Of a DNA stretch of 40,000 bases, positions 14,634-38,473 are shown in pieces. Numbering within the stretch: position 1 is the first letter of the stretch; every line of letters starts with the position of its first letter. The notes under the pieces were generated by a model that was not told the origin of the DNA, did no database searches, and saw only the letters and a list, made by a program, of their open reading frames with translations. The stretch spans positions 33,855 through 73,854 of the forward strand of contig CAAEBC010000013.1 of NCBI GenBank assembly GCA_900753975.1, in the 5' to 3' direction. Position numbers and translations under genes: made by a program. The DNA comes from Clostridia bacterium. GTDB taxonomy: Bacteria > Bacillota > Clostridia > TANB77 > UBA1234.

Positions 14634-14729
14634 TACTAAAATTACTTTACATTTCCAACATGCGATGATATAATTCCTTTGCTTAAGTTTAATAGGCACG
14701 AAGAAAATATTAAGAGGGAGTTGATAACT

Positions 14730-17700
14730 TTGAAAAAGGCATTTAAAGTAATTACATTATTGATGCTTGTTATTTTAGTAGTAACAGCTTTTGCAATGCC
14801 AGCTAGTGCGAAACAAGTTTTTACAGATTTATCGCCAGAGCATTGGTGTTATGCTAAAATAATGGATTTTGAAAAGAAAGGTTATGTATGTGGATATTCC
14901 GATAACACATTCAGAGCAGATAGAACAATCACGAGAGCTGAGTATGTAAAAATAGTAAATAACTTTTTTGGATACAAGCCAAGTGAAAAAACAACATCTG
15001 CTTTTAAAGATGTAAACAGTGGAGACTGGTTTATGCCATACGTAAACGAAGCTGTAGATAGAGGTTATATCGAAGGATTTGAAGATGGTACATTTAGGCC
15101 ACAAGATCCTATCAGAAGACAAGAAGCTACAGTAATCTTAGCAAGAATATTAAAGATAGACAAAGAAGTTTATCCAGCTGACCACAAAGACGGTTTAGCA
15201 CAATATTCTGATAGTGATGAGGTTCAAGAGTGGGCTAGAGTTGCTATTCATAGTTATTCTGTTTATAACTTTATAAATGGTTATGAAGATGGAACACTTA
15301 GAATCTTAAGAAATGTAACAAGAGCAGAAACAGTTGAACTTTTACACATTTTAGAGCAAAAAGTAGTCATAGATAGAAAACCAGGTGGTGGGGGAACAAA
15401 AACTCCTACTTTAAAACCAGATATAGATGTTTTAGTAAGAAATTTAATTGAAGTTCCAGTTGAAAATGAAATTGCTATAAAAGAAGAATACACACCTGCT
15501 ATTTATACAAAATCAAACTGGATAAATAAAAAGAATTCTAATTTTGAAAAAGAAACTGCTAGAAATGGTGCTTTTGTAAATATTACATCTCAAACAACAG
15601 GTTCTACAATTCATGATACAGTTGATGTAATATCTAGAAAAGAAGAATATAAAACAACAAAACGTGATGAATACGATAATAAATTTTTCTTAACTGATGG
15701 CGTATATACAGTTACAGCTAAAGCTACTAAATCTGGAAGAAAAGATAGTAGTACTGCTGAAAGAGAAGTTAAAATTGATACAGTTGCTCCTATTGCTTAT
15801 GGTGTAGCTACTACAAAGAGTGGAGAAATTAGTCATGAGCAATCAATTACAGTATCAGTAAAAGATCTAAATTTATATAAAACAAATGAAATAAGTGGAT
15901 TAGACAAAGTTGCATATGCTTGGTTTAATGCAGATACAGAAGAAAGAGTTACTTCTTGGGTAGCTTTATCTTTAGTAAATGGACAAGCCAAAGTAGATGC
16001 GCCAGTAGCGTATGGTAGCTATAAATTAGGAATTTCTGCTATCGACGTAGCTGAAAATACTTTTGGAACAAAAACAGAATTCAATGTTAAAGCAGAAGAT
16101 ATTAGTGGCGATGTACCAACAAATCCGAGTGGAGATGTTGATTATGACTTTGTTAAAGAAATAGAAAGTGGAGAAGAAACTCCAAGTGGTGATGACATAG
16201 TAGTTATTGTAGGAAATAATCCTCCAACTATCGAAGACTTAATATTATACACAAGCGTTAATGAACTTGTAAGTGGAGAATTAATTGGTAAAGATATCGA
16301 TAGTGGTGATGTATTAAGTTACGAACTAAAAGATGAACCTAATTATGGAACAGCAAATGTAACTGGTAATGAAACAACTTACGTATCTGATAAAACTGGT
16401 ACTTACACTTATACAGTAAGAGTAAAAGATAATAATAGTGGAGAAGCTATTGGTAATGTTACCGTTTATGTTTATGATGCCGAAGTAGAAATACCAGAAA
16501 ATCCAAGTGGAGATGAAATTAAATATCCAGATTTATCTGGTGACAAATTGATTATTTTCACTGGCGAAGAAAAAGATATGACTGTGACAGTCGCACCAAG
16601 TGGAGAGCCTATTAAAGATATAAAATATAATTGGAGTTTTAAAGCAAACGAAGAAAAAGCCAAAATTTCTTCAGGAGCAGATGAAGAAAAAGTAACTGTG
16701 AAAGGTTTAATTCCTGGAGAAACAAAAATAACTGTAAAAGTTAAAGTAAATATAGAAAAATCAAATGGCGAAACTGAAACAGTTGAAATAAAAAAAGAAA
16801 TAACTGTAGTAGTATTAAGCAGAATTACAATTCAAATACCAAGTGATAGCAAAACTTATGATGGAACACCGTTAAAAGCTAAAAATTTTGAAGTTGTAAG
16901 TGGAAGTAAAGCACTTATTGAAGGTGTAATGGCTAGCGGAGACCAAATAACAGTTGGAGTATCTGGAGAAAGAATTGATGTTGGTTCTAGTGATGCAGTA
17001 CTAGAAAGTTATACAATTTTAAATAGAAATAGCGAAGATGTTGCAAAATATTACGTACCAACTTTTAAAGACGGTACATTAACAATAATTGCAAAAGCAG
17101 ATGAAATTGTAATAAAAGCTATTAGTGATTCAAAAAAATATGATGGAACAGTTTTAAAAAATAGTGGATACACATATACAAGTGGTGTATTAGTATCTGG
17201 AGATATTTTAGAAGCAGTTGTTAGTGGAGAGCAACTAAATGCTGGTTCTGGTGACAATAAAGTAATTAGCTACAAGGTTACTAGAAACGGCGTAGATGTT
17301 ACTGATAATTATACTTTTGGTGAATGTGTAGATGGAGTGCTTGAGGTTACAAAGAGAAAAGTAACATTAACAAGTGCATCAGCTAGCAAAGTATACGATG
17401 GAAGAGAATTAACAAGTGGAGATGTTACCGTAACAGGTGACGGATTTGTGTCTGGCGAAGGTGCAACGTATGATGTAACAGGAACTATAACAAACGTAGG
17501 CGAGGCAAAAAATGAATTTACTTATACATTGAAAGATAATACTTCTGGAGATAACTATGAAATTACAACTAATACTGGAATTTTGAAAGTAACTCCAGTT
17601 ACAGAAGAAGTTGTTATCAAAGTAAAAGGTAATAGTGCTAGTGGAGATAAATATGATGGAAATGAAAAGAAAGTAACTGGATACGAAGTAGTTTCTATTA

Positions 17701-20615: not shown

Positions 20616-20792
20616 TTATCGATATTTAAAAGATATCTAAATGAGGTGCACTTCAAATGTTAGAAAAAATTTAACGTTTGGAGTGTACTTTATTTTTAGG
20701 TATCTTTTTTAGGTTATTTGGAAGAAATGTATTTTTATTTTGATAATGTCTGATATAATGTATGTATAAAAACAAAAGAGGAGGATGTAAAA

Positions 20793-22736
20793 TTGAAAAA
20801 GACAGTTGTACTTTGGGTCATAATTGTTATTTTACTTTTATCGAATGCATTTTTTGTGTACGAGTATTTTAAAAAAGATAATTCGGTGCCTAACTATCCA
20901 AATAGTGAGTCATCTGGAGAAAACAAGAACAACGATAACGAAAAAACTTCAGGAGATATATTTTCAACTGTAGTAAAAAATTCTGGTGAATCAATTATAA
21001 ACGAAGAGCCAACTTTAGATAACAAAGATAAAAACAAAGAGGTAACGGCAAAATACGATGTTATAGTATTTGATGCAGAGCCAGAGGGAATTTGTGCTGC
21101 AATTTCTGCTGCAAGAAATAATAAAAAAGTTTTATTAGTAGAAAAAAGAGATGGTCCTGGTGGTCTTATGACTTATGCCATGCTAAATACAATCGACATG
21201 AATACAGATCCGAATGGAACACTTTTGAGCCAAGGTATTTTTGAAGAGTTTTATAAAAAAGTTGGCAACAAGGTTTCTTTTGATGTAAAGACTGCTAAAA
21301 AAGCATTTGAAGAAATGCTTGATGCGGAAGAAAATATTACAACAATATACGACGTAGAAGATATACGTATAGGTTCAGACGGTTCAAAGATTGAATATGC
21401 TATTATTGATGAAGAAAAATATGTTGCAGATATGTACATAGATTGCACACAGGATGCAGATATAACAGTAGCTGCAGGTGGCAAGTATGTAAAAGGTTGG
21501 GAAGATATTAACGAAGAAAATCGTTCTATGTCAGCTACTTTAGTAATTGCTATGGATAATGTTGATTGGAATAAATGTTGTGAATCAATCAAAAAAGCAA
21601 ATCTGCCTAACACAGGCTATACATCAGATAGTATCTGGGCATTTGGAAACATTACTCAAAAGTATGTTCCAAAACAATCTCACATGAGATTAAAAGCTTT
21701 AAATATAGGACTTCAAAATGATGGGACTGTTTTAATAAATTCTCTTCAAGTAATAAACGCAGACATGCTAGATAGTAAAGCAAAAGAAAAAGCTTATGAA
21801 AAATGTGTTAAAGAAGCAGAATATGTTGCTAAATTTATAAAAGAAAATGTACCAGGTTTTGAAAAGGCTACACTTTCAGGAGTTGCACCAGAGCTATATG
21901 TAAGAGAAACGAGACACATAGTTGGTGAGTATAAACTAACTGTAAAAGATATTTTAGAATCTAAATATTCATATAATGCTATAGGAATGGCAGCATATCC
22001 AATAGATGTTCAAACTACAAGCATATATGACTGGGGATATATTATCGGAAATCCAAAGCAATATTATTTACCAATGGGAATAGTTATTCCAAAAGGTTAC
22101 ACCAATCTTATGACTGTAGGACGTTCTGGTTCTTACACATCAATTGCAGCTGGTTCTGCTAGAGTCATTCCAACAGGTATGACACTCGCTCAATCTGCTG
22201 GCGTTATGGCAGCTGTTTGCATAGACCATAAAATGAACTTGCAAGAATTACTTGCAGATTATAATGTTAAAAGAGAAATAACAACAAGACTTACAAATCA
22301 AGGAATGTATTTGAAAAAGAACTCTATGCCAGCAGTTGATACAAATGGTAGGTATTATGATTTTATGATAGAAATGTGTGAATTAGGACTTTTAAGTTTG
22401 GGATATAATAATGAATTTAATCCAAATGAGTTGGTTTCAGAAAGAGAATTTATATCTCTTACAAAAACTTATTTAAAGAGAAACTTCTTAAAAGAAGAAC
22501 TTTGGAATACAGACCACATAAATTTACTAGATGCTAGCGAAGAAGCTGTATCTGCAAATAGAGCAAAGGAAATTATGTATGATATAACTACATACAATAT
22601 TAAAGACGAAGCTGTGAGAGAAAAAATCGAAGATTACATAGAAAAAGTTGCACCAGAGGGAAATGAAAAGATGACGTTAGTAAGAGTATATGAAATACTT
22701 AGATATCTGAAGGATTTTTTAGTAAAAAATATTTAA
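20793..22736 (+). CDS. membrane-anchored FAD-dependent oxidoreductase family protein
   Basis: TTG start after RBS agaggagga. N-terminal TM helix, S/N-rich linker, dinucleotide-binding motif YDVIVFDAEPEGICAAISAARNNKKVLLVEKRDGPGG. Confidence 0.7.
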   Translation: MKKTVVLWVIIVILLLSNAFFVYEYFKKDNSVPNYPNSESSGENKNNDNEKTSGDIFSTVVKNSGESIINEEPTLDNKDKNKEVTAKYDVIVFDAEPEGICAAISAARNNKKVLLVEKRDGPGGLMTYAMLNTIDMNTDPNGTLLSQGIFEEFYKKVGNKVSFDVKTAKKAFEEMLDAEENITTIYDVEDIRIGSDGSKIEYAIIDEEKYVADMYIDCTQDADITVAAGGKYVKGWEDINEENRSMSATLVIAMDNVDWNKCCESIKKANLPNTGYTSDSIWAFGNITQKYVPKQSHMRLKALNIGLQNDGTVLINSLQVINADMLDSKAKEKAYEKCVKEAEYVAKFIKENVPGFEKATLSGVAPELYVRETRHIVGEYKLTVKDILESKYSYNAIGMAAYPIDVQTTSIYDWGYIIGNPKQYYLPMGIVIPKGYTNLMTVGRSGSYTSIAAGSARVIPTGMTLAQSAGVMAAVCIDHKMNLQELLADYNVKREITTRLTNQGMYLKKNSMPAVDTNGRYYDFMIEMCELGLLSLGYNNEFNPNELVSEREFISLTKTYLKRNFLKEELWNTDHINLLDASEEAVSANRAKEIMYDITTYNIKDEAVREKIEDYIEKVAPEGNEKMTLVRVYEILRYLKDFLVKNI

Positions 22737-25795: not shown

Positions 25796-26365
25796 ATGGA
25801 AAATATAAATAGTTATTTTAAATTGGCAATGTTTATTCCTATTGGAATAGCAGTGTTTATTTCAATATTAATAACTCCGTATTTAAAGTTAGGAAACTAT
25901 AAGATTGTATGTAAAGCAAGAGAGCAAAACATATATGTAAAAGGTAATTTTATTTGGCCTACTCCTGGAGTGACAGGGATATCTTCTTATTTTGGAAGAA
26001 GAAAAACTCCAGTAAAAGGAGCTTCTACATTTCATAAAGGGATAGATATTTTAGCGTCTCAAGGTACAAATGTTTATGCAACAGCAAGTGGAAAAGTAGT
26101 GATAGCGGGATTTAGTGCTTCTGGTGGATATATGTTAAAAATAGAACATGAAAATAATTATACGTCGTCGTATTGTCATTTATCGGAAAGATTGTATGTT
26201 AAGAATGGCGAATATGTGAGGAGCGGACAAAAAATTGGAACCGTAGGTCCAAAGTATCTTTCAAATGGAAAATTAAATGGTGCAACAACAGGAGTTCATT
26301 TACACTTTGCTATTACCAATAATGGAGAGGCAATAGATCCACTAAAAATATTAAATATTAGGTAG
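25796..26365 (+). CDS. M23-family (LytM-type) metallopeptidase with N-terminal TM anchor
   Basis: HKGIDI, SSYCHLS and VHLHF motifs of the peptidase M23 zinc site. Confidence 0.85.
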   Translation: MENINSYFKLAMFIPIGIAVFISILITPYLKLGNYKIVCKAREQNIYVKGNFIWPTPGVTGISSYFGRRKTPVKGASTFHKGIDILASQGTNVYATASGKVVIAGFSASGGYMLKIEHENNYTSSYCHLSERLYVKNGEYVRSGQKIGTVGPKYLSNGKLNGATTGVHLHFAITNNGEAIDPLKILNIR

Positions 26366-26462
26366 CCGTAGGTATTTCATAATGTACAATAAAATTTACG
26401 GTATAAGTAAAATAAATTTTACAAAAAGTAACAAAAATTAACTCTCCGTAATGAGAATGTAA

Positions 26463-26498
26463 ACAGTTTGTAAAATTGGTAAACATTTTATAAACTGT
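26463..26498. promoter_or_regulatory. 14-8-14 dyad abutting the -35 of the S-layer promoter (candidate operator)
   Basis: acagtttgtaaaat (26463-26476) versus the reverse complement of attttataaactgt (26485-26498): 13/14 match. Confidence 0.4.
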
Positions 26499-26499
26499 G

Positions 26500-26527
26500 T
26501 TGACTCTAAAAATTTAACGTATATAAT
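26500..26527 (+). promoter_or_regulatory. near-consensus sigma-A promoter of the expressed S-layer gene (TTGACT-N16-TATAAT), giving a ~135-nt leader
   Basis: ttgact at 26500-26505, tataat at 26522-26527. The leader contains two interleaved stems (26578-26585/26613-26620 and 26593-26599/26631-26637). RBS aaaggagga at 26652-26660. Confidence 0.6.
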
Positions 26528-26668
26528 GACATTGTAGTTAGGAAAACATGGCAATAATTCCATAAATTTCTTAACACTTAGGTTGTTACAGAGCAGAAAA
26601 GGTGGAAAGGGGCAACCTAATAAAAATTACTTTCTGCCGAAACAAAAAATTAAAGGAGGATATTCTAA

Positions 26669-29254
26669 ATGAAAAGAATAGTATCATTATTATTAGCGCT
26701 TTCAATGGTTCTTAGTATGTTTACTGTATCTTTTGCTGGAACAAGCTTAAAAGATATCGAAGGTAAAAAATACCAAGCTGCAGTTGAAGCACTAGTTGAA
26801 TTAGGTGTTGTTTCTGGTTACCCAGATGGAACATACCTACCAGACAATGTAGTAACAAGAGCAGAACTTGCTAAATTATTAGTAGTTGCTTATGGATTAG
26901 AGCCAGCTGCTGAAGCTTCAAAAGGTGTTACACCTTTCGCTGATGTAAACGCAGTTGCAAATCACTGGGCTTCTGGCTACATTAACGTATCAGCTGATTA
27001 CAAATTCGTTAATGGTTACCCAGATGGTTCATTCAAAGGTGATGCTACAGTTACATATGCTGAAGCTATCACAATGTGTTTAAGAGTTTTAGGTTATGCT
27101 AATGAAATTGATTCAAAGGGAACATGGCCAACAAACTACATAGCAAAAGCACAAGATCTTAAATTAATGAAAGATATCGAATTTGCTTCTTACAACGATG
27201 GAGCTAAAAGAGGAGATATCGCTTTATTAATCTGGAATATGTTAAGAACTCCTATGTGGGAAGTTACTGGCGAAACAGAGGGTGATGGTTTAGCATCTGC
27301 ACCTAACAGATATATGTTAAACGTAAAATTCTCTGATTATGCATATACAGACAAAGCTACTTTCGAAGGATTCGAAATTAAAGAAGATAAGAAAGAAGAA
27401 GTTGCTAAAGTATATGTTTCATTAGAAAATGGCGACAGCAAAAAAGAATACGAAATATTAGATAATAAAGAATATGAATATGCTGGAAATGATTTTTATA
27501 AATTTGTTCCTGGAACAGAAGTAGAAGTATTAGTTAACGAAGATGATAAAACTTTATTAACTATGGTTGCTACAGGTTCTGACAAATTAGTAGAAGGCGA
27601 CAAAGATGAAGTTAATGATAAATATGATTTATCAGGTGACTATGATTATGCTTATGCAAGAGTTGAAGGTAAGAAAGTAAAAAATTCTACAACTTTAACT
27701 GGTGCTAAATACGAATATGTATACAAATTTGAAGAAAAAACAGATTACGTAAAAGTAAATGGTAGAAGATTAGAAAAAGATGATTATACAGATAAACTAA
27801 TTCTTCGTGGTGGCGAAAGAGTTGAATTATCTGATATCAAAGTTGGAGACATTATCACTACTGTTGAAGTTTCAAATGGTGAGACATTCTATGTAATCGG
27901 TGGAACAGAAGTTGAAGGTAAATTAACTAAAGTTTCTGAAGAAGATTACGAAAATGTTACTGGAACGTACATCAATGCAGTTATCGGTGGAAAAGACTAC
28001 AAAGTAGCAGACGGTGCTAAATATGTAGAAGATCCAGAAAAAGATGCTGAAAAAGCGGGAACAACATTAGCAAATTCTTGGGAAAAAGGAATGAAGAACG
28101 AAGAAGTTGTTGCTAAATTAGATCCAGTTTTCGGTAAAGTTGTAAGAGTTGAATTCGATGGTCACATTGGTGATGGCGAAGACACAACATACAAATTCTT
28201 TGCTGCAACATCTGATGTTTACACAGGTAAAACATCTAAAGAGTATTATATTGAATTAGCTACAGTTGATGGAGATGCTGAAGAATTCAAATTTGCTAAA
28301 GCAGCTATCACTACAGCTAAAGCTTTATATACTGAAGAATTAGAAGGCAGATTCGTTGCTGTTGAATTAAATGATGACGACGAAGTTGTTGATGTAAAAG
28401 TAGTAGCTGACGAAAGTAAGATCACATATGGTGCTGAACCTAACGAATACTACGAAATCACAAAATTAACAAACGCTGAATATGACAAAGATGAAAAAGC
28501 TGTTACAGACGGAACAGATAGCTTCCCAGTAACAAAGAATGTTATCGTTGTAATCGAAAAGACTATCAACGAAGGAAAGAAGAACGAAGAAAAAGTTGTT
28601 GAATTCTCTGACTTAAGCGAATTAGAAGGCTTAAAGAAGAAAGATATGGTTGTTGTTATTGATAAAGACGCTGACATCCAAACAGCTAAATATGTTGTAA
28701 TCAAAGATGCTGAAAAGACATCTGATAACAAAGTTGGTAAAGTTAAGAGTGTTGTTAAGAATAAACTTGGCGACTACGAAGTAACTCTTGAAACAGAAGA
28801 TGGTAAAGAAACAGCTATCGTTGCTGATGCTGATTACGCTAAAGTAAAAGCTCATGAAGATGGTGTTGTTGTTTACACAACTGAAACAAATAGCGATGAT
28901 GAATTAGAATTCAACTTCGTTAAAGGTATCGCATATGATGAATTAGATGACACAAATACAAATCATGGTTATGTATCAGCTGTTGACGGTGATTTATTCA
29001 CAGTTAAGAATGCTGGTGCTGGTACTTACGATTTAACATCTAAGACAGTTACAGATGCTTGGGAAGATGCTACAATCGTTATCGTAGAAGTAACAGAAGT
29101 TAAAGGTGACGCTCATCAATACGAAGTAGATACTATCACAACAGTAGCTTTAGACGAATTAAGTCTTGAAGTTGCAGATAGAATATCTTTAGGTAAAGAC
29201 GGAGAAGACGTTGAAGCTGTATTCGTAATCAGAAACATGGCTGAAATGGACTAA
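26669..29254 (+). CDS. S-layer-type surface protein with signal peptide and three N-terminal SLH repeats (expressed copy)
   Basis: Signal peptide MKRIVSLLLALSMVLSMFTVSFA. SLH repeats (aa ~25-75, ~88-140, ~150-195). Acidic, repeat-poor 660-aa body. Strong promoter, long leader, dedicated terminator. Confidence 0.9.
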   Translation: MKRIVSLLLALSMVLSMFTVSFAGTSLKDIEGKKYQAAVEALVELGVVSGYPDGTYLPDNVVTRAELAKLLVVAYGLEPAAEASKGVTPFADVNAVANHWASGYINVSADYKFVNGYPDGSFKGDATVTYAEAITMCLRVLGYANEIDSKGTWPTNYIAKAQDLKLMKDIEFASYNDGAKRGDIALLIWNMLRTPMWEVTGETEGDGLASAPNRYMLNVKFSDYAYTDKATFEGFEIKEDKKEEVAKVYVSLENGDSKKEYEILDNKEYEYAGNDFYKFVPGTEVEVLVNEDDKTLLTMVATGSDKLVEGDKDEVNDKYDLSGDYDYAYARVEGKKVKNSTTLTGAKYEYVYKFEEKTDYVKVNGRRLEKDDYTDKLILRGGERVELSDIKVGDIITTVEVSNGETFYVIGGTEVEGKLTKVSEEDYENVTGTYINAVIGGKDYKVADGAKYVEDPEKDAEKAGTTLANSWEKGMKNEEVVAKLDPVFGKVVRVEFDGHIGDGEDTTYKFFAATSDVYTGKTSKEYYIELATVDGDAEEFKFAKAAITTAKALYTEELEGRFVAVELNDDDEVVDVKVVADESKITYGAEPNEYYEITKLTNAEYDKDEKAVTDGTDSFPVTKNVIVVIEKTINEGKKNEEKVVEFSDLSELEGLKKKDMVVVIDKDADIQTAKYVVIKDAEKTSDNKVGKVKSVVKNKLGDYEVTLETEDGKETAIVADADYAKVKAHEDGVVVYTTETNSDDELEFNFVKGIAYDELDDTNTNHGYVSAVDGDLFTVKNAGAGTYDLTSKTVTDAWEDATIVIVEVTEVKGDAHQYEVDTITTVALDELSLEVADRISLGKDGEDVEAVFVIRNMAEMD

Positions 29255-29273
29255 TCTATAGTCACTAACTAAG

Positions 29274-29307
29274 AAAGCGAGAGGTTTTAAAGCCTCTCGT
29301 TTTTTTG
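29274..29307 (+). terminator. intrinsic terminator of the expressed S-layer gene
   Basis: cgagagg (29278-29284) pairs with cctctcg (29293-29299), followed by ttttttt. Confidence 0.8.
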
Positions 29308-29453
29308 TTTTTTGATTAGTTGATAAAGTTAGAATTGCATATTCAATTTTCTTTGCCATTTTTATTAAATTATTTAATAAAATAATTTTTATAATACACT
29401 TATAATACACATAAATATCCCCCAGTAAAAAAGTGGGGGTTTCTTCTAAATAC

Positions 29454-29489
29454 AAAAAAGCGAGAGGTCTTAAAACCTCTCGTTTTTTT
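29454..29489. terminator. terminator copy belonging to the silent cassette (palindromic, A- and T-tracts both sides)
   Basis: cgagagg (29461-29467) pairs with cctctcg (29476-29482). A-run at 29454-29459, T-run at 29483-29489. Confidence 0.75.
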
Positions 29490-29505
29490 AGTTAGTGACT
29501 ATAGA

Positions 29506-31726
29506 TTAGTCCATTTCAGGCATGTTTCTGATTACGAATACAGCTTCAACGTCTTGTCCGTCTTTACCTAGAGATATTCTATCTGCAACTTCAAGACTTA
29601 ATTCGTCTAAAGTTACTGTTGTGATAGTATCTACTTTGTATTGAACATTTACTTTGTCATCTTCTGTTACTTCTATGATAACGATTGTAGCATCTTCATA
29701 AGTATCTTTAAATGTTTTAGATGTTAAATTGTAAGTCTTGTCACCTTCAATTGTGAACATATTTCTACTAATAGCTGATACATAACCATATTTGTATTTG
29801 TAGCGTTTAATTCATCATATTTGATACCTTTAACGAAGTGGAATACTAATTCATCATCGCTATTTGTTTCAGTTGTGTAAACAACAACACCATCTTCATG
29901 AGCTTTTATGTTATCTTTTTCTGCATTAGCAACGATAGCTGTTTCTTTACCATCTTCTGTTTCAAGAGTTACTTCGTAGTCGCCAAGTTCATTTTTAACA
30001 ACACTCTTAACTATACCAACTTTGTTATCTGATGTCTTTTCAGCATCTGCGATTATAACAAATTTAGCTGTTTGAATATCCTCATCTTTATCTACTACAA
30101 CAGTCATATCTTTTCTCTTTAATCCTTCTAATTCGCTTAAGTCAGAGAATTCAACAACTTTTTCTTCGTTCTTCTTGCCTTTGTTGATAGTCTTTTCGAT
30201 TACAACAATAACATTATCAGTTACTAGAACTTTATTTGATCCATCAGTAACAACATTTTCATCTTTGTCATATTCAGCATTTCCTAATGAAGTAATTTCA
30301 TAGTATTCACCAGATTCTGTACCATAAGTAATTACATCTTCGTTTACTACTACTTTTACATCAACAACTTCGTCGTCGTCGTTTAACTCAACAGCAACGA
30401 ATCTACCTTTTAAATCAGCATTATATAAAGCTTGAGCTTTAGCCTTAGCTTCTTTAGTTGTAGCAAATTGGAATTCTTCAGCATCACCATCAACTGTAGC
30501 TAATTCAATATAGTACTCTTTAGATGTTTTACCATTATAAACATCAGATGTTGCAGCAAAGAATTTGTATGTTGAGTCTTCACCATCACCAATGTGGCCG
30601 TCAAATTCAACTCTTACAACTTTACCGAAAACTGGATCTAATTTAGCAACAACTTCTTCGTTCTTCATTCCAGATATCCAACCACTATCAAAAGATTTGC
30701 CAGCTTTGTCAGCGTCTTTCTCTGGATCCTCTACATAATTAGCACCTTTTGCTACTACATAGTCTTCTCCACCGATAACTGCATTGATGTATGTTCCATC
30801 AACATTTTCGTAGTTTTCTTTAGAAACTTTAGTTAATTTACCTTCAACTTCTGAACCACCAATTACGTAGAAAGTTTCACCGTTTGAAACTTTAACAGTT
30901 GTGATGATGTCTCCAACTTTGATATCAGAAAGTTCAATTCTTTCGCCGTTACGAAGAATTAAGTCATCTGTATAATCATCTTTGTCTAATCTTCTACCAT
31001 TTACTTTTACGTAATCTGCTTTATCTTCGAATTTGTATACATATTCGAAGCTTTCGCCAGATAAAGTTGTAGAAGCTTTTACTTCTTTACCTTCAACTCT
31101 TGCATAAGCATAATCATAGTCGCCTGATAATTCATATTTATCGTTAATAGCATCTTTCTTACCTTCTACTAATTTGTCAGAACCTGTAGGAACGATAGTT
31201 AATAAAGTTTTATCTTCTTCATTAACTAAAACTTCTACTTCTGTTCCTTTAACAAATGTATAGAAGTCGTTTCCAGCATATTCATATTCTGTATTTTTTA
31301 ATACATCATATGAAGTCTTTGTATTTTCATTAGGTGTTATGTGATCATCTAATGTAATATATACTTTAGCAACTTCTTCTTTCTTGTCTTCTGCGATTTC
31401 GAATCCTTCGAAAGTAGCTTTATCTGTATATGCATAATCAGCGAATTTTACATTTAACATGTATCTGTTAGGTTCAGATGCTAAACCATTGCCTTCAGAT
31501 TCACTTGTGATTTCCCACATTGGAGTTCTTAACATATTCCAGATTAATAAAGCGATATCTCCTCTTTTAGCTCCATCGTTGTATGAAGCGAAATCGATAT
31601 CTTTCATTAATTTAAGTTCTTGTGCTTTTGCTATGTAGTTTGTTGGCCATGTTCCTTTTGATTCGATTGCTTTAGCATAACCTAAAACTCTTAAACACAT
31701 TGTGATAGCTTCAGCATATGTAACTG
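29506..31726 (-). pseudogene. promoterless, 5'-truncated, frameshifted second S-layer gene copy (silent cassette)
   Basis: Homology to the expressed gene begins inside SLH repeat 2 (VTYAEAITMCLRV). An in-frame TAA lies 13 codons upstream of the Met and there is no RBS, start codon or signal peptide. A 1-nt deletion (aat-at-ggt versus aat-cat-ggt, about 29779) splits it into track ORFs 29724-31700 and 29506-29760. Confidence 0.85.
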
Positions 31727-31761
31727 GCGTGCTTGCTTGAAAGCTTAATTTGGTTTAGTTC

Positions 31762-31790
31762 TTGCCTTAACGTGTGTATTATGTGATACT
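31762..31790 (+). promoter_or_regulatory. candidate promoter of the recombinase gene (TTGCCT-N17-TGtGATACT)
   Basis: ttgcct at 31762-31767, gatact at 31785-31790 with an upstream tg. RBS aaaggag at 31813-31819. Confidence 0.4.
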
Positions 31791-31827
31791 TTTTAATGAA
31801 AATCTATTTATGAAAGGAGATTTTGTT

Positions 31828-32859
31828 ATGAGACTGCCAAATGGTTTTGGTTCGGTTCACAAACTAACAGGTAACAGAAGAAAGCCTTACAGAGTTAGGA
31901 TTACTGTGGGTTGGGAAGATGCTAATGATATTAATAGAACACAAAAGTATAAAACAATAGGATATTTTTCTACAAAAGAGGAGGGACTTATCGCTCTTGC
32001 CTGTTTTAATAAAAATCCTTATGATATTTCTTTCGATAACATGACTTTTAATGAAGTGTATAAGCTTTGGAGCAATGAACATTATAAAAATATTACTTCA
32101 TCTTCTAAAAGAATTTGGATTGCAGCATATAAGCATAGTGAATGTTTGTATAATAAAAATTTTAGGAGTTTAAAAGTTTCCGATTTAGAATTAGCTATAA
32201 ATGTAGCAGATGTTGGTGCTGCTACTAAACTTAGGATGAAGTGTTTATATAATATGATGTATAAATATGCAATCAAACACGAGATTACAGATAAAAATTA
32301 TGCAATGTATTGTGATGTACCAAGGGTAGTTACAGTCATGGAGCGACTTCCTTTTTCGGATGAGGAGATTGATATTTTGTGGGATAATCTTAATATGCCT
32401 TTTGTAGATATGATTTTGATTAATATTTATTCTGGTCTTCGTCCACGAGAACTTGTGGAGCTACAAACAAAAAATATTGATTTAGAAAAAAAGTTAATTG
32501 TAGGTGGAATGAAGACAGATGCCGGAAAGGACAGATGTGTGCCAATACACGATAAAATATATTTTCTTATAAAGAAAAGGTTTGATTTAAAAAACGAAAG
32601 ACTATTTTTAAATGAAGATATGCAAGAAATGGATTATTATAGTTACAGATTAAGATTTATGAAGGTTATGAAAAATCTTAATATGTTTCACAGACCGCAT
32701 GATGCACGTCATACTTTTATAACTAAAGCAAAACACGCAGATATAAATGAATATATTTTAAAACAAATTGTTGGTCATAAGATTTCAGATATTACAGAAA
32801 AAGTTTATACGCATAGGAATATTGACGAATTATACGCAGAAATTAACAAAATAAAGTAA
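31828..32859 (+). CDS. tyrosine site-specific recombinase (phage-integrase family, AP2-like arm-binding N-terminus), solitary
   Basis: Start at ATG 31828 behind the RBS. N-terminus MRLPNGFGSVHKLTGNRRKPYRVRI is typical of Firmicute integrases. Complete catalytic set: R (GLRPRE), K (GGMKTDAGKDRCVPI), HxxR (HDARHT), H (GHK), Y (VYTH). Confidence 0.9.
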   Translation: MRLPNGFGSVHKLTGNRRKPYRVRITVGWEDANDINRTQKYKTIGYFSTKEEGLIALACFNKNPYDISFDNMTFNEVYKLWSNEHYKNITSSSKRIWIAAYKHSECLYNKNFRSLKVSDLELAINVADVGAATKLRMKCLYNMMYKYAIKHEITDKNYAMYCDVPRVVTVMERLPFSDEEIDILWDNLNMPFVDMILINIYSGLRPRELVELQTKNIDLEKKLIVGGMKTDAGKDRCVPIHDKIYFLIKKRFDLKNERLFLNEDMQEMDYYSYRLRFMKVMKNLNMFHRPHDARHTFITKAKHADINEYILKQIVGHKISDITEKVYTHRNIDELYAEINKIK

Positions 32860-32914
32860 TTATGAACGATTAGTCACAAAGTATTTCCATTAAGGAGCAA
32901 TTAGTATTTAGCTC

Positions 32915-32943
32915 TTGCAATTATGTATATTGTGGTTTAAAAT
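32915..32943 (+). promoter_or_regulatory. candidate topA promoter TTGCAA-N17-TAAAAT
   Basis: ttgcaa at 32915-32920, taaaat at 32938-32943. Confidence 0.4.
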
Positions 32944-32980
32944 AGTATGGTAGAAAAATTAAAATGGATAGGAGATAAAT

Positions 32981-35005
32981 ATGGCTGATTATTTAGTGAT
33001 CGTGGAATCACCTGCTAAGGCGACTACCATAAAAAAGATTTTAGGAAGTAAATATAAAGTTGAAGCTTCTATGGGACATGTTAGAGATTTACCTAAATCA
33101 CAATTAGGAATTGATATAGAAAATGATTTTGAACCTAAATATATTAATATACGAGGAAAAGCAGATTTAATTAAAAAACTTAAAACTGAAGCTAAGTCAG
33201 TTAAAAGAGTTTATCTTGCAACCGACCCTGATCGTGAGGGAGAAGCTATTGCTTGGCACTTAGCCTATATTTTAGGGATAGACGATAATTCTAATTGTAG
33301 AATTGCTTTTAACGAGATAACAAAAAATGGAATTCAAAGTGCGATAAAAGAACCACGCAAACTTGATAAGGATTTGATTGATGCACAGCAAGCAAGAAGA
33401 GCTTTGGATAGAATTGTTGGATATAAGATTAGCCCTCTTTTATGGAAGAAAGTAAGAAAAGGTCTTTCTGCTGGTAGAGTGCAATCTGTTGCTGTTAGAC
33501 TTATTGTCGATAGAGAAGAGCAAATAGAAAATTTTGTGCCCGAAGAATATTGGACTTTGGATGCTGAGCTTCTTTCTGGTAGGAAAAAATTTGACAGCAA
33601 ATTTTGGGGTGAGGGTGACAAAAGGTTAGATATAACTTCTGAAGTTCAAATGAATGAAATTTTGGATTATTTGGAAGATAAAAAATATATTGTAAAAGAT
33701 GTTAGAACAGGAGAAAAGAAAAGAAATCCTGCACCACCTTTTACTACTAGTACACTTCAACAAGAAGCTTCTAGAAAGCTTGGCTTTGCTATTAAAAAGA
33801 CGATGTCTTTAGCTCAAGGTTTATATGAAAGTGGTCTTATAACATACATGAGAACGGACTCTACAAGAATTTCTGAAGAAGCACGTAGTATGGCAAAAGA
33901 GCAAATCGTTAAAACTTTTGGTGCAGAGTATTATGAGAATAGATATTATAAAACTAAAAAAGATGCACAAGATGCACACGAAGCAATTAGACCTACTTAT
34001 TTAAATGTTCTACCAAGCGAGATAAAAGAAAAATATTCTTACGATCAATATAAACTTTATAAACTTATTTATGAAAGATTACTTGCTTCTCAAATGGCTG
34101 CCGCTGTTTATAATACAACAAGTGTTGATATTGAAGCAGGTAAATATATGTTTAGAACAAACGGATCTAAGTTAAAGTTTAATGGTTTTATGGCATTATA
34201 TGTTGAGGGTAATGATGATAATCTTGAAGAAAAAGATGTGATTTTACCTGACTTAAAAATTGGTGCTGAAGTGAAGTTAAAGGAACTTATACCAAGTCAA
34301 CATTTTACAGAGCCACCTGCAAGATACACAGAAGCAAGTCTTGTAAAGATGCTTGAAGAAAAAGGCATTGGTAGACCAAGTACTTATGCACCTACAATTA
34401 CTACTATTTTAGAAAGAAGATATGTAGAAAAAGAAAAGAAGATTTTGTATCCAACTGAGCTTGGAAGAATTGTTGATAAACTTTTAAAAGATAATTTTAA
34501 AGATATAGTTAATGTTGAATTCACAGCACAGATGGAAGAAAAACTTGATGATGTTGCAGAAGGAAAAGTTAAGTGGAAAGCAATCTTAGAAGATTTTTAT
34601 CCGCCTTTCGAAAAGAACTTAAAAGAGGTTGAAGAGAAAATTGGAAAAGTCGAAATTAAAGACGAAGAGACAGACATACCTTGTGAAAAATGTGGCAGAA
34701 TGATGGTAATCAAGATGGGAAGATTTGGCAAGTTCTTAGCATGTCCAGGTTTTCCAGAGTGTAGGAATGTTAAATCTATAATCGAGAAATTAGATAAAGT
34801 TAAATGTCCAAAATGTGGTGGTGATATTCTTATAAAGAAGAGTAAACGTGGTAAAAAATATTATATTTGTGAACACAACGATGGAGAAAAAGGGCATTGT
34901 GATTTTATAGCTTGGAACGGTCCAGATAAAAATGGAAATATTAAGGCGGCAGATCTTGATGAAAAGCCAAAAAGAAAGACAAGAAAGACGAAGAGCAAAA
35001 AATAA
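32981..35005 (+). CDS. topA: DNA topoisomerase I (type IA) with C-terminal zinc ribbons
   Basis: TOPRIM start LVIVESPAKA, DPDREGE, active-site region ITYMRTDS. C-terminal CxxC...C motifs (CEKCGRMM...CPGFPEC; CPKCGG...CEH) and a basic tail. Confidence 0.95.
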   Translation: MADYLVIVESPAKATTIKKILGSKYKVEASMGHVRDLPKSQLGIDIENDFEPKYINIRGKADLIKKLKTEAKSVKRVYLATDPDREGEAIAWHLAYILGIDDNSNCRIAFNEITKNGIQSAIKEPRKLDKDLIDAQQARRALDRIVGYKISPLLWKKVRKGLSAGRVQSVAVRLIVDREEQIENFVPEEYWTLDAELLSGRKKFDSKFWGEGDKRLDITSEVQMNEILDYLEDKKYIVKDVRTGEKKRNPAPPFTTSTLQQEASRKLGFAIKKTMSLAQGLYESGLITYMRTDSTRISEEARSMAKEQIVKTFGAEYYENRYYKTKKDAQDAHEAIRPTYLNVLPSEIKEKYSYDQYKLYKLIYERLLASQMAAAVYNTTSVDIEAGKYMFRTNGSKLKFNGFMALYVEGNDDNLEEKDVILPDLKIGAEVKLKELIPSQHFTEPPARYTEASLVKMLEEKGIGRPSTYAPTITTILERRYVEKEKKILYPTELGRIVDKLLKDNFKDIVNVEFTAQMEEKLDDVAEGKVKWKAILEDFYPPFEKNLKEVEEKIGKVEIKDEETDIPCEKCGRMMVIKMGRFGKFLACPGFPECRNVKSIIEKLDKVKCPKCGGDILIKKSKRGKKYYICEHNDGEKGHCDFIAWNGPDKNGNIKAADLDEKPKRKTRKTKSKK

Positions 35006-35471: not shown

Positions 35472-36551
35472 ATGAAAATTCTTATCGCAGCAGGTGGAAC
35501 TGGTGGGCATATAACACCGGGAATAGCTATAGCAAATATGCTTAGAGAAAGAGGCGATAATGTAAAGTTTGTTGGTACTGAAACAGGAATGGAAAAAGAT
35601 TTAGTACCAAAGGCAGGATATGATTTAGAGTACATACATGCAGAAGGCTTACATAGAGGTTTATCTTTGAAAAATATTAAGACATTAATGACTTTGAAAA
35701 AGGGAATTGATGATTGCTTAAAAATTATAGATACTGAAAAACCAGATATAGTAATTGGAACGGGTGGATATGTAACTGCCCCACTTATGATAGCTGGAAT
35801 TAAAAGAAAAATACCAACTATGATACATGAAAGTAATGCACTTCCTGGTAAAACTACAATTTGGCTTTCAAAAAAAGTTGATGTTATTGCACTTGGATTT
35901 GAAGATGCGAAAAAGAGAGTGCCAAATGCAAAATGTGCAGTCTATACTGGCAATCCTACTAAGATGAATGACTCTTTAAATAAAGATGAAATGAAAAAGA
36001 AATTAGGACTTGAAGGAAAGTCTGTTTTAATTTTTGGTGGCAGTCAAGGAGCAAGAAAAATAAACGATACAATCATTGATATGATTAATGAAAATAAAGA
36101 TTTATCATACAAGGTAATTTATGCTACTGGACCAAAAAATTACGATGAAGTAATTAGTAAGATAAATGTAGAAAATAGTAGATTTAAAGTTGAAAAATAC
36201 ATATATAATATGCCGGAAGTTATGGCAGCAAGTGATTTGGTAGTCTGTAGAAGTGGTGCATTAACGGTTACTGAAATTAGTGTTTTGGGAGTACCGTCTA
36301 TAATGATACCTTTTCCTTATGCTGCAGAAAATCATCAATATTATAATGCTAAAACTATTGAAGATGCGGGTGCTGGGATTATAATCGAAGAAAAAGATTT
36401 GACTAAAGATGTTTTAGAAGATAAGATTGAAAGCATTATAAACGATGACAAAAAATTAATGGAGATGTCATTAAATGCTAAGAAAGTTGGAGACAACAAA
36501 GCTATCGAAAGAATAGAAAATGAAATTGATAAATTGGTGGTAAAGAAGTAA
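35472..36551 (+). CDS. murG: UDP-N-acetylglucosamine--N-acetylmuramyl-(pentapeptide) pyrophosphoryl-undecaprenol GlcNAc transferase MurG
   Basis: MKILIAAGGTGGHITPGIAIA N-terminus, GGSQGA, and the C-terminal ADLVVCRSGALTVTEI...PS pattern. Confidence 0.95.
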   Translation: MKILIAAGGTGGHITPGIAIANMLRERGDNVKFVGTETGMEKDLVPKAGYDLEYIHAEGLHRGLSLKNIKTLMTLKKGIDDCLKIIDTEKPDIVIGTGGYVTAPLMIAGIKRKIPTMIHESNALPGKTTIWLSKKVDVIALGFEDAKKRVPNAKCAVYTGNPTKMNDSLNKDEMKKKLGLEGKSVLIFGGSQGARKINDTIIDMINENKDLSYKVIYATGPKNYDEVISKINVENSRFKVEKYIYNMPEVMAASDLVVCRSGALTVTEISVLGVPSIMIPFPYAAENHQYYNAKTIEDAGAGIIIEEKDLTKDVLEDKIESIINDDKKLMEMSLNAKKVGDNKAIERIENEIDKLVVKK

Positions 36552-38473
36552 TGTCGAAAAAATTATTGATTACAGAGAAGCCTAGTGTTGCAACAGAGTT
36601 TGCTAAGGCTTTAAAAATAAATACAACACGAAAAAATGGATATGTAGAATCAGATGACTATGTTATTACTTGGTGTGTTGGACATCTAGTAACAATGAGT
36701 TATCCAGAAGTTTATGACGAAAAGTATAAAGCTTGGCGATTTGACACTTTGCCGTTTATTCCTACTGAGTGGAAATATGAAGTTATTGCAAGTGTTCAAA
36801 ATCAATTTGACATTGTAAAATCTTTGCTTTTGCGTGATGATGTTGATACGATTTATGTTTGTACTGACTCTGGAAGAGAGGGAGAATACATTTATAGATT
36901 AGTGGATGCGATGGTTGGTGTGAAAGGTAAAGAGAAAAAAAGAGTTTGGATTGATTCGCAAACAGAAGAAGAAATACTAAAAGGAATTAACGGTGCAAAG
37001 GATTTAAGTGAATATGATGCTCTTGCTGATAGTGCTTACTTAAGGGCGAAAGAAGATTATTTAATAGGTATTAATTTTTCTAGACTTCTTACACTTACTT
37101 ATGGAAAAAAACTAGCAGAATTTTTAAATCAAGAAAGAGCACCTATTTCTGTTGGACGTGTAATGACTTGCGTTTTGGGAATGGTTGTGTCTAGAGAAGT
37201 TGAAATAAGAAATTTTGTAAAATCCAAGTTTTATAAGATTGGTGCAAATTTTGAAGAGGGAATAAGTGCTGAGTGGAAATATGATGCTGAAAATCAAAAT
37301 AATTTTAAAGAACTAATTAATGTTGTAGAAAAAAATAATTTATATAATGATAACGGTTTTAAAATCGAAGAAGATGCGAATAAATTTATTGAAATACTAA
37401 AATTGCAAAATCCAAAGGGTAAGGTTTTGGAAGCAAGTAAAAAAACTCAAAAAGAAAATGCACCACTTTTATATAATTTGGCTGAAATTCAAAATGAATG
37501 TAGTAAGCGATTTAAAATTTCACCAGATCAGACACTAGAAGTTATTCAGCTACTTTATGAGAAGAAACTAGTTACTTATCCTAGAACAGATGCCAGAGTT
37601 TTATCAACAGCAGTTGCAAAAGAAATTAGTAAAAATTTAAATGGACTTGCTAAATGGGGAAAAGATGCGAAGATTAAAAGCTTATTAGATAGTATGATTG
37701 CCAATAAATATTCAATAGATATTGTTAAATCAAAATATGTAGATGATTCAAAAATAACAGATCACTACGCTCTTATTCCAACAGGACAAGGTTTCGAAAA
37801 TTATGATGCATTATCTGATTTGCAAAAAGATATATATATACTTATTGTAAAAAGATTTTTAAGCATTTTCTTTCCACCCGCAGAATATACAAAGCTTGCG
37901 ATAACTGTAGATATAGCTGGTCAAAAATTTTATGCGAATGCTAAAATTTGTACAAAACAAGGTTATTTAGAAGTTATAAAAGATGAAACAAGAGATGATG
38001 ATTCCAAAACAAATATTGAAGCTTTATCAAAAATAAAAAAAGGACAAGAACTAGCATTAACAGATTTGTATACTAAAGAAGGTGAAACTTCGCCACCTAC
38101 TAGATACACATCGGGTTCTATTATTCTTGCGATGGAAAATGCAGGAAGACTTATAGAAGATGAAAGGCTTCGTGAACAAATAAAAGGCAGTGGAATTGGT
38201 ACAAGTGCGACAAGAGCCGAGATTATAAAAAAATTAAATAGAATAGGTTATATTAATATAAATGCAAAAACGCAAGTACTTACTCCAAGCGAAAAAGGAG
38301 AACTTGTGTATAAGGCAGTTGGATGGTCTATGCCAGATATGTTAAATCCTGATTTAACAGCAAGCTGGGAAAAAGGTTTGGATATGGTTGCTAAAAAAGA
38401 AATTAAACCAGACGAATTTATGGGAAAACTTGAGCTTTATATAAGATCAAAAACTGCGAAGATAAAGAGATAG
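36551..38473 (+). CDS. topB: DNA topoisomerase III (type IA)
   Basis: TOPRIM LLITEKPS, TDSGREGE, active-site VTYPRTDARVLS, no zinc-ribbon tail. The ATG overlaps the murG TAA by one base (taatg). Confidence 0.9.
   Translation: MSKKLLITEKPSVATEFAKALKINTTRKNGYVESDDYVITWCVGHLVTMSYPEVYDEKYKAWRFDTLPFIPTEWKYEVIASVQNQFDIVKSLLLRDDVDTIYVCTDSGREGEYIYRLVDAMVGVKGKEKKRVWIDSQTEEEILKGINGAKDLSEYDALADSAYLRAKEDYLIGINFSRLLTLTYGKKLAEFLNQERAPISVGRVMTCVLGMVVSREVEIRNFVKSKFYKIGANFEEGISAEWKYDAENQNNFKELINVVEKNNLYNDNGFKIEEDANKFIEILKLQNPKGKVLEASKKTQKENAPLLYNLAEIQNECSKRFKISPDQTLEVIQLLYEKKLVTYPRTDARVLSTAVAKEISKNLNGLAKWGKDAKIKSLLDSMIANKYSIDIVKSKYVDDSKITDHYALIPTGQGFENYDALSDLQKDIYILIVKRFLSIFFPPAEYTKLAITVDIAGQKFYANAKICTKQGYLEVIKDETRDDDSKTNIEALSKIKKGQELALTDLYTKEGETSPPTRYTSGSIILAMENAGRLIEDERLREQIKGSGIGTSATRAEIIKKLNRIGYININAKTQVLTPSEKGELVYKAVGWSMPDMLNPDLTASWEKGLDMVAKKEIKPDEFMGKLELYIRSKTAKIKR

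Follow-up and report, generated by a model that had tools for sequence, protein, structure and literature searches.

A putative two-slot coat-protein switch with an adjacent phage-type tyrosine recombinase in uncultured gut Clostridia

We analysed a stretch of 40,000 nucleotides from a Clostridia bacterium (contig CAAEBC010000013.1 of assembly GCA_900753975.1), here referred to as the window, in which a complete gene for a putative S-layer protein anchored by S-layer homology (SLH) repeats, gene A, converges on a 5′-truncated second copy of itself, cassette B, with a tyrosine recombinase gene next to the truncated end. A first-pass annotation, made from the letters alone, had taken these elements as a candidate S-layer antigenic-variation system with one expression site, one inverted silent cassette and a recombinase. 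All coordinates are window positions unless a locus is named, and both the promoter consensus scan and the Rfam scan covered 26300-33100.

Gene A is a complete open reading frame (ORF) of 861 aa on the + strand (26669-29254). Upstream of it lies the only strong promoter match of the scanned region, TTGACT-16-TATAAT at 26500-26527 (+ strand), which agrees with the consensus at 11/12 positions. The promoter is followed by a 5′ leader of about 135 nt, read off the sequence (26528-26668, + strand), and by a ribosome-binding site (RBS), AAAGGAGGATA, at 26652-26662 (+ strand). The earlier description of a complete gene with a near-consensus promoter and a leader of this length therefore stands. No Rfam family matched anywhere in the scanned region, the leader included.

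Codons 1-126 of gene A (26669-27047, + strand) form a fixed N-terminal module composed of the signal peptide, SLH1 and the first half of SLH2. This module is unique to the expression site, as every silent cassette lacks its counterpart. It continues into the expression-site arm of a shared 5′ block (27048-27268, + strand), which encodes the second helix of SLH2 and SLH3. This arm is the smallest inverted repeat common to all cassette types, and judging from the cassettes compared, exchange would have to take place within this zone. The gene ends at a terminator at 29270-29307 (+ strand).

In the protein, a signal peptide, assessed by eye, precedes the triple SLH anchor. Pfam recognizes two SLH stretches in gene A, and an AlphaFold model (pLDDT 82, built from 60 homologues) contains three helical SLH repeats followed by a beta-rich body. 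When the N-terminus of the model is superposed on SpaA and Sap, it fits their three-repeat SLH domains with a TM of 0.70-0.79 over 165-181 alignment columns, by which the three repeats counted in the first-pass annotation are confirmed structurally, at the level of a predicted fold. The mature protein has a mass of 92.5 kDa, a pI of 4.4 and one Cys. Such a composition is typical of S-layer proteins and, together with the near-consensus promoter and the long leader, lends indirect support to the putative label ‘S-layer’; the label ‘antigenic variation’ is presumptive likewise. PDB searches with the body of the coat protein, by sequence and by fold, gave the SLH domain alone, with no characterised homologue and no match to a solved S-layer. 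Fold matches of the body to DDB1 were dismissed for their low probability.

Cassette B (29506-31726, - strand) lacks a promoter, a start codon and a signal peptide. Its sequence is the counterpart of A codons 127-861 and runs collinear with them, with 85% nucleotide and 80% amino acid identity over 2.2 kb, and an alignment of such length and identity excludes chance resemblance. The collinearity had been recognized before with an estimate of 80-85% amino acid identity, of which the low end proved right. Between A and B, dN/dS, the ratio of nonsynonymous to synonymous substitution rates, is 0.43. The onset of identity is abrupt, exactly where it had been placed from the letters: a 55-bp perfect run, in which 27048-27102 is the reverse complement of 31726-31672, is followed by further perfect matches of 38 and 62 bp, with 68 bp as the maximum anywhere. 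The silent-site arm of the shared block occupies 31506-31726 (- strand). An in-frame stop 9 codons upstream of the B boundary likewise agrees with the first-pass annotation, which had noted a stop there and the missing start codon and signal peptide.

A 1-bp deletion in B, which that annotation had missed, lies between 29789 and 29790 (- strand). It is present in the window strain and in locus L003, and it splits B into ORFs of 658 and 84 aa. A flip using the frameshifted B is predicted to yield a 793-aa product with a 17-aa aberrant tail. B is intact with 731 aa in L002, L004 and L102. Because these three loci lack the frameshift, it appears to be a strain-level decay of an unexpressed copy.

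A and B also share their last 200 nt and their terminators, with arms at 29116-29315 and 29445-29644 that are 94% identical; the terminator of B is at 29461-29482 (- strand). The stop codons of the two copies are 251 nt apart. While the shared 3′ ends and terminators had been described correctly, the unique spacer between the converging copies, namely the gap between the inverted-repeat arms, is 129 nt (29316-29444) rather than 143 bp.

The recombinase gene (31828-32859, + strand) starts 101 bp beyond the 5′ boundary of B and encodes a phage-type tyrosine recombinase of 343 aa. Its match to PF00589 scores 63.9 bits against a cut-off of 27.1, and it matches the integrase family phrog_1 with an E of 4.6e-41. 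Residues R205, K229, H291, R294, H317 and Y327 align with the catalytic residues of XerA (4a8e) and are invariant in three orthologues. Among named subfamilies, XerC, XerD, XerA, XerS and integron integrase, all NCBIfam scores were far under their cut-offs, the best being 64.5 bits for XerA against 220. In what may be an arm-type DNA-binding domain, an N-terminal motif, MRLPNGFGSVHKL.GNRR.PYR, is invariant and common to prophage integrases, but the N-terminus has no credible Pfam match. The recombinase is under purifying selection, as dN/dS is 0.03 against L001, 0.09 against L099 and 0.14-0.19 between species, and thus it is not a relic.

The intergenic region between cassette and recombinase (31727-31827) is species-specific except for an RBS at about 31812 and a conserved motif. 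The motif reads TGTGTATTAT(A)TG.TAC, lies at 31773-31789 in the window and recurs in all 7 species (L012, L016-L022), about 35-60 nt upstream of the recombinase start codon. It is probably the -10 region of the recombinase promoter. Of what had been said of this gene, the catalytic set, the RBS and topA as the next gene hold, but a sigma-70 promoter of its own was not found by the consensus scan over 26300-33100, and this conserved motif takes its place as the probable promoter element. Incidentally, the reverse complement of the motif is similar to the block edge AGTTACATAT, a likeness that may be chance. While topA is directly downstream of the recombinase in the window, an SLH gene of 654-933 aa occupies that position in other species (L012 4611-6575, L016 3866-6667, L103 and L104).

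A genome collection was scanned with an alignment of the recombinase, and 80 loci were returned. Each recombinase homologue with 57% identity or more (L012-L022, about seven species) divergently adjoins a 5′-truncated cassette, and none of the 74 homologues of 53% identity or less has such a neighbour, so that the co-occurrence of recombinase and cassette foreseen from the window alone is borne out. One of the outgroup integrases is at a prophage end next to a cI-like repressor, which speaks for a phage origin of the recombinase. The cassette-bearing loci are from metagenome-assembled genomes (MAGs) of uncultured gut Clostridia, and their flanking genes differ between species, with the position of the module relative to the coat gene being constant.

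The anatomy is the same in all these species. Cassettes start at A residue 127 (104 in a tblastn match of L021, where the DNA boundary is unchanged), and the homology boundary ...|CAGTTACATATGC is at the same nucleotide in every species, beyond which the silent-side flank is unrelated between species. Where the contig covers the partner (L012-L014, L016-L019 and L021), it is always a convergent full-length SLH gene that shares with the cassette a 5′ block of at least 295 nt, with 90-96% identity over 295-360 nt in most loci. In the other species, the two bodies in one locus are only 32-49% identical, and the shared block is thus the one element kept alike. The most divergent locus, L022 from a rabbit-gut MAG, additionally has at 1-2154 a second convergent pair of short SLH genes with a 448-nt inverted repeat of 97% identity, and the L022 contig showed no clear expression-site partner for its cassette.

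Silent cassettes are under selection as well. In 11 of 13 loci, no stop interrupts the first 738-792 codons after the boundary, and one is found 0-37 codons upstream of it; the cassette of L020 has a single stop at its third codon. When neutral substitution was simulated at the A/B divergence, 99.9% of the replicates gained a stop. The cassettes L018_S and L019_S, silent in both genomes, have a dN/dS of 0.15 between them, and the expressed bodies of the same two loci evolve about four times faster at synonymous sites with a dN/dS of 0.36. Open frames and a dN/dS of 0.15 together mean that stored copies must be translated at times.

Alternative orientations were found in a sister species. L016 7975-12734 equals L103 12731-7975 reversed, with 98.9% identity over 4760 nt, exactly from boundary to boundary, and the two contigs are collinear on both sides of the inversion with 95-99% identity. 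Their arms are perfectly reciprocal from offset 307, and no perfect run in the repeats is longer than about 96 bp. Additional body combinations are present in L104 and L017, and a fourth body type of the sister species was seen at the expression site only.

Contigs of the window’s own species were retrieved from human-gut metagenomes by exact-protein look-ups. L001 has an A identical to that of the window, and stores a different cassette, C, of 684 aa. The first 202 bp of C (27048-27249) are 100% identical to A, similarity is gone by about 27268, and past the block C is unrelated to A in nucleotide sequence. L010 and L011, from two further samples, encode the proteins P0063 and P0074, in which the exact first 194 residues of A are fused to a body C′, and have the A body in the silent, convergent position, whereas L001 has A expressed and C silent. 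This relation is the reciprocal product that would be expected of inversion across the block. The L010 and L011 contigs end inside or near the second arm. Compared with silent C of L001, the expressed C′ of L010 (3509/3510) and L011 (2250/2251) has a common in-frame deletion of 543 nt (L001 13319-13861), and its C-terminal end is GIEWGILMVKIFY versus GIEWGD.

Judging from these contigs, both orientations exist among strains. The inversion of about 27.1-31.7 kb that had been proposed from the window is thus matched by the orientations of L016/L103 and of L001/L010/L011, but a flip of the A/B pair itself was not found among the contigs and proteins retrieved.

Expressed and silent bodies were also compared by clustering at 80% identity, using 125 classified database proteins (127 were retrieved) and the bodies derived from the loci. 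Seven body clusters hold both full-length (fused) and truncated (silent) forms. For instance, L016_E has 99.9% identity to silent P0105, and P0010 shares 93% with silent P0079. Some body types are nearly always silent. The silent slot holds unlike bodies even in near-identical strains, B or C in the window species and at least three, W, Y and Z, in the sister species.

Chimeric coat proteins, which had been predicted to arise by crossovers within the bodies, are recorded as A/B conversion tracts in L003, L004 and L102. In L003, A and B differ from the window at 17 sites, and at 17/17 of them the base is that of the paralogue. A is mosaic over a patch at 28408-28697 in both L004 and L102. The latter also has B converted by A over 28630-28844 and the A block converted by B. 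The tracts are 16-215 bp long and run in both directions between A and B. Because they are non-reciprocal, they are attributable to homologous recombination, not to a tyrosine recombinase. We considered whether the single-nucleotide patches of L003 could be assembly artefacts of low coverage (7x), and rejected this because the same is seen, with larger tracts, in L102 and L004 (k141 or scaffold assemblies). Where cassettes were replaced between the window strain and L001, the exchange fades out diffusely inside the recombinase gene.

Traces of a site for the recombinase were sought in the block and at the module ends. Synonymous conservation over the whole block was 55% compared with 40% upstream, which is not a significant difference (p = 0.16). 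Among the first 11 invariant codons of the block, 10 use a single codon across four species, compared with 40% upstream, with this stretch having been chosen post hoc. The outer part of the block is the best candidate for a recombinase site. The A/B 3′ homology was the only repeat found in a search for att-like repeats at the module ends, and no tRNA gene was found in eight outgroup integrase loci scanned, a scan that did not include the window itself.

We consider it probable that the locus is a two-slot coat-protein switch, in which the part of the adjacent recombinase in the flip is inferred. The expression site alone holds the promoter, the leader, the signal peptide and the first 126 codons, and both sites carry the inverted block of about 220-380 bp, which encodes the rest of the SLH anchor and leads into a different body at each site. 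A crossover between the two blocks would invert about 4.7 kb between 27048 and 31726, so that the fixed N-terminal module would become fused to the stored body and the current body would be retired. The adjacent recombinase, presumably a domesticated phage-type integrase, would catalyse or promote this flip. In the window species, homologous recombination in addition moves short patches in both directions between the 85%-identical bodies, producing mosaic alleles, and new cassettes enter the silent slot via exchange between strains. In the window strain, a crossover upstream of the frameshift (27048 to about 28960) would produce a C-terminally truncated protein.

Several observations weigh against this switch or against the role given to its recombinase. 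In all of the approximately 12 A/B-type contigs, the expression site is occupied by A, and no protein among 1402 homologues joins the signal peptide or the A N-terminus to the B body. A scan of metagenomes of the Joint Genome Institute (JGI) with the block sequence revealed no flipped A/B pair, as its 2 matches have an A-type or a P0004-type body at the expression site. B is frameshifted in the window strain, and L097 and L098, about 90% identical to the window in the flanks, have neither cassette nor recombinase. Body type P0108 of a second species was found as a silent cassette only, down to 60% identity, with no expressed form above 48%. The evidence on orientation is entirely from metagenome assemblies, and the L001-type repeat, a 202-bp perfect match, is longer than a typical short read. 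With regard to the enzyme, the conversion tracts in the bodies are scattered as well as non-reciprocal, as is typical of RecA; tentative crossover intervals are inconsistent, with offsets of 98-169 in one case and 262-306 in another; and no convincing dyad symmetry of a recombinase core site was found in the block.

The observations on the enzyme would suit the same switch with both flips and mosaics made wholly by RecA-type homologous recombination, as in the sap system of Campylobacter fetus, while the recombinase serves regulation or the import or stabilisation of cassettes. We give this version a real but clearly lesser chance. The non-reciprocal tracts of 16-215 bp in both directions and crossover intervals at more than a single position speak for it, as do blocks of 200-380 bp with 90-100% identity, which suffice as substrates of homologous recombination, and the window/L001 exchange that decays gradually in the recombinase gene as homologous import would. 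However, it leaves unexplained why a phage-type integrase clade is confined to the locus and kept intact under strong purifying selection across species in which the coat bodies have diverged to 32-49% identity, and the outer 45 nt of the block are unusually conserved at synonymous sites. That the locus never flips and the orientations are artefacts assembled at inverted repeats is very improbable. The repeat length in L001-type loci, the contig ends of L010 and L011, the 7x coverage of L003 and the exclusive use of metagenome contigs would all allow such artefacts. On the other hand, the L016/L103 repeats carry diagnostic mismatches and match perfectly for only about 96 bp at a stretch, seven body types are represented in both forms in data from many samples and pipelines, and the 543-nt in-frame deletion shared by the expressed copies of L010 and L011 is absent from L001; selection on silent cassettes would also be left unexplained.

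Alternatively, cassette and recombinase could constitute a small mobile or integron-like module that inserts by the coat gene and captures or exchanges cassettes site-specifically at the block. The module is polymorphic for presence, being absent from L097 and L098, near-identical strains store differing bodies (B or C; W, Y or Z), and the recombinase is of integrase type with a conserved N-terminus. Yet we hold such a module to be improbable. A 47-nt remnant of the recombinase in L098 points to deletion instead of an empty target, the import tract ends diffusely in the recombinase gene, and the position by the coat gene is constant in all species despite different neighbours; flanking direct repeats, an excisionase and transfer genes are missing from the module, and no tRNA genes were found in the outgroup integrase loci scanned, which did not include the window. 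As for a functionless, decaying duplicate beside the remnant of a dead prophage integrase, B does lack its 5′ end and is frameshifted in the window, and the integrase is of a generic phage family. However, the architecture and the exact boundary are kept in about seven species with cassette ORFs open, a silent cassette has a dN/dS of 0.15 and the recombinase one of 0.03-0.19, and the frameshift is absent in L002, L004 and L102. We rejected this ‘pseudogene plus dead integrase’ reading, which conservation and dN/dS contradict, and put its chance close to nil.

Returning to the two-slot switch, there is a small chance that its recombinase does more than flip, and acts as an integron-like enzyme that captures incoming coat cassettes into the silent slot at the block. 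Such capture would explain the unrelated stored bodies in near-identical strains. If it occurs, acquiring and trying out coat proteins would be the task of a dedicated system in a family of uncultured gut Clostridia.

The region downstream of the coat gene has changed between strains in other ways. L098 keeps 47 nt of the recombinase 3′ end, equal to window 32843-32889, which points to loss of the module there by deletion. The right-hand junction in the window (32843-32904) contains a second relic, as an FtsX-type permease gene, present in L097 (9238-9570) and L098 (8089-9165), survives in the window only by its last 16 nt (EALRSN*) at 32889-32904. In sister strains, the coat locus and topA are separated by an HlyD-like/efflux operon. 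Together with the permease loss in the window, this marks the region as a deletion hotspot. The coat-gene alleles of L097 and L098, which carry P0004 and P0002, are still highly diverse (79-90% identity to A), and allelic replacement therefore evidently goes on without the switch. P0034 (553 aa, on a 2290-nt contig) passes from a P0004-type coat N-terminus to a UvrD-like helicase C-terminus after about 325 residues, so that either the coat gene of some strain has taken up an insertion or the contig is chimeric.

Elsewhere in the window, a 1978-aa SLH (and VWA) protein is encoded upstream at 14679-20615. Strains with about 99.6% identity in other respects (L001, L002 1-3963) are hypervariable in this protein, and its length elsewhere is 1965 or 1895 aa. 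Between the window and L001, more than 300 differences fall in 20000-21200, followed by zero for about 3 kb. On the other side of the locus, two type IA topoisomerase genes flank murG, namely topA with zinc ribbons (32981-35005) and a gene for a 640-aa Toprim/Topoisom_bac protein (36551-38473).

In many Gram-positive bacteria, the S-layer forms the outermost surface and is the obvious target of phages and host antibodies. The segment found flipped in relatives suggests that a cell could swap its outer coat. The signature of such coat switching, a full gene, a cassette that begins at ...CAGTTACATATGC and a specific integrase clade, is conserved and easily recognised within a lineage of uncultured human-gut Clostridia. 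It could be scored in existing metagenomes by relating the reads per orientation to phage load, host immunity or diet. The locus would also be a clean case, found in nature, of a host function taken on by a domesticated phage integrase, and a test bed to separate site-specific from homologous shares in programmed inversions.

In the literature searched, we found no prior description of this locus or of SLH-type S-layer switching, in line with the first-pass annotation, which knew of no SLH-type switch with a dedicated integrase. Among known S-layer systems, that of Lactobacillus acidophilus has slpB, presumably a complete gene, and we know of no dedicated recombinase gene beside it. In contrast to the Slp proteins, the coat protein here is anchored by SLH repeats; moreover, the stored copy is without the first 126 codons and has a stop just upstream, the crossover would fall within the sequence that codes for the anchor, and the cassette has a conserved integrase next to it. 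What L. acidophilus slpA/slpB and the present locus have in common is an active and a silent gene that are opposed, such that inversion puts the silent one behind the single promoter (PMC3666127). The silent slp gene occupies the expression site in only 0.3% of chromosomes (Boot et al. 1996, as reviewed in PMC3666127), and similarly, some body types here are nearly always silent.

The sap system of Campylobacter fetus resembles this locus in that a 5′ anchor block is shared and inversion changes the expressed body. There, the conserved 5′ anchor-coding block of variable bodies is the recombination substrate, and the promoter is on an invertible element between several complete homologues; inversion is RecA-dependent, and we know of no dedicated recombinase. 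Here, by contrast, the promoter at 26500-26527 is outside the repeat boundaries (27048/31726), and there is a single truncated cassette. In Clostridioides difficile, cwpV is subject to an ON/OFF leader switch between short repeats by a distant recombinase, and coding bodies are not exchanged. The vpma and vsa systems of Mycoplasma have many cassettes with short specific sites in the 5′ untranslated region, unlike the one cassette and the long coding repeat here. Vpma (Xer1) and vsa (HvsR) nevertheless share with this locus a single expression site, promoterless stored genes and an adjacent tyrosine recombinase (PMC5634654 for Vpma/Xer1). As with cwpV and RecV (PMC2784873), inversion by a tyrosine recombinase, whose role here is presumptive, would control a clostridial cell-wall protein.

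The closest framework is perhaps that of gene-altering inversions, among which, as predicted by Milman, Yelin and Kishony 2023 (PMC9881135), SLH-domain proteins are 2.3-fold enriched, a line of an enrichment table that comes with no description or validation. As in the Type I restriction hsdS shufflons (PMC9881135), a gene faces an inverted, shorter and promoterless partial copy, the repeats are coding sequence, and a tyrosine recombinase is nearby. Unlike the inversions of that study, the enzyme here belongs to a full-length phage-type integrase clade that is confined to the locus. What characterises gene-altering programmed inversions is found here too, namely a promoterless inverted paralogue, a co-conserved recombinase and both orientations in one species, although not for the A/B pair. 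By its sequence organization, the locus thus appears as a new, well-conserved member of this class, applied to an SLH surface-layer protein.

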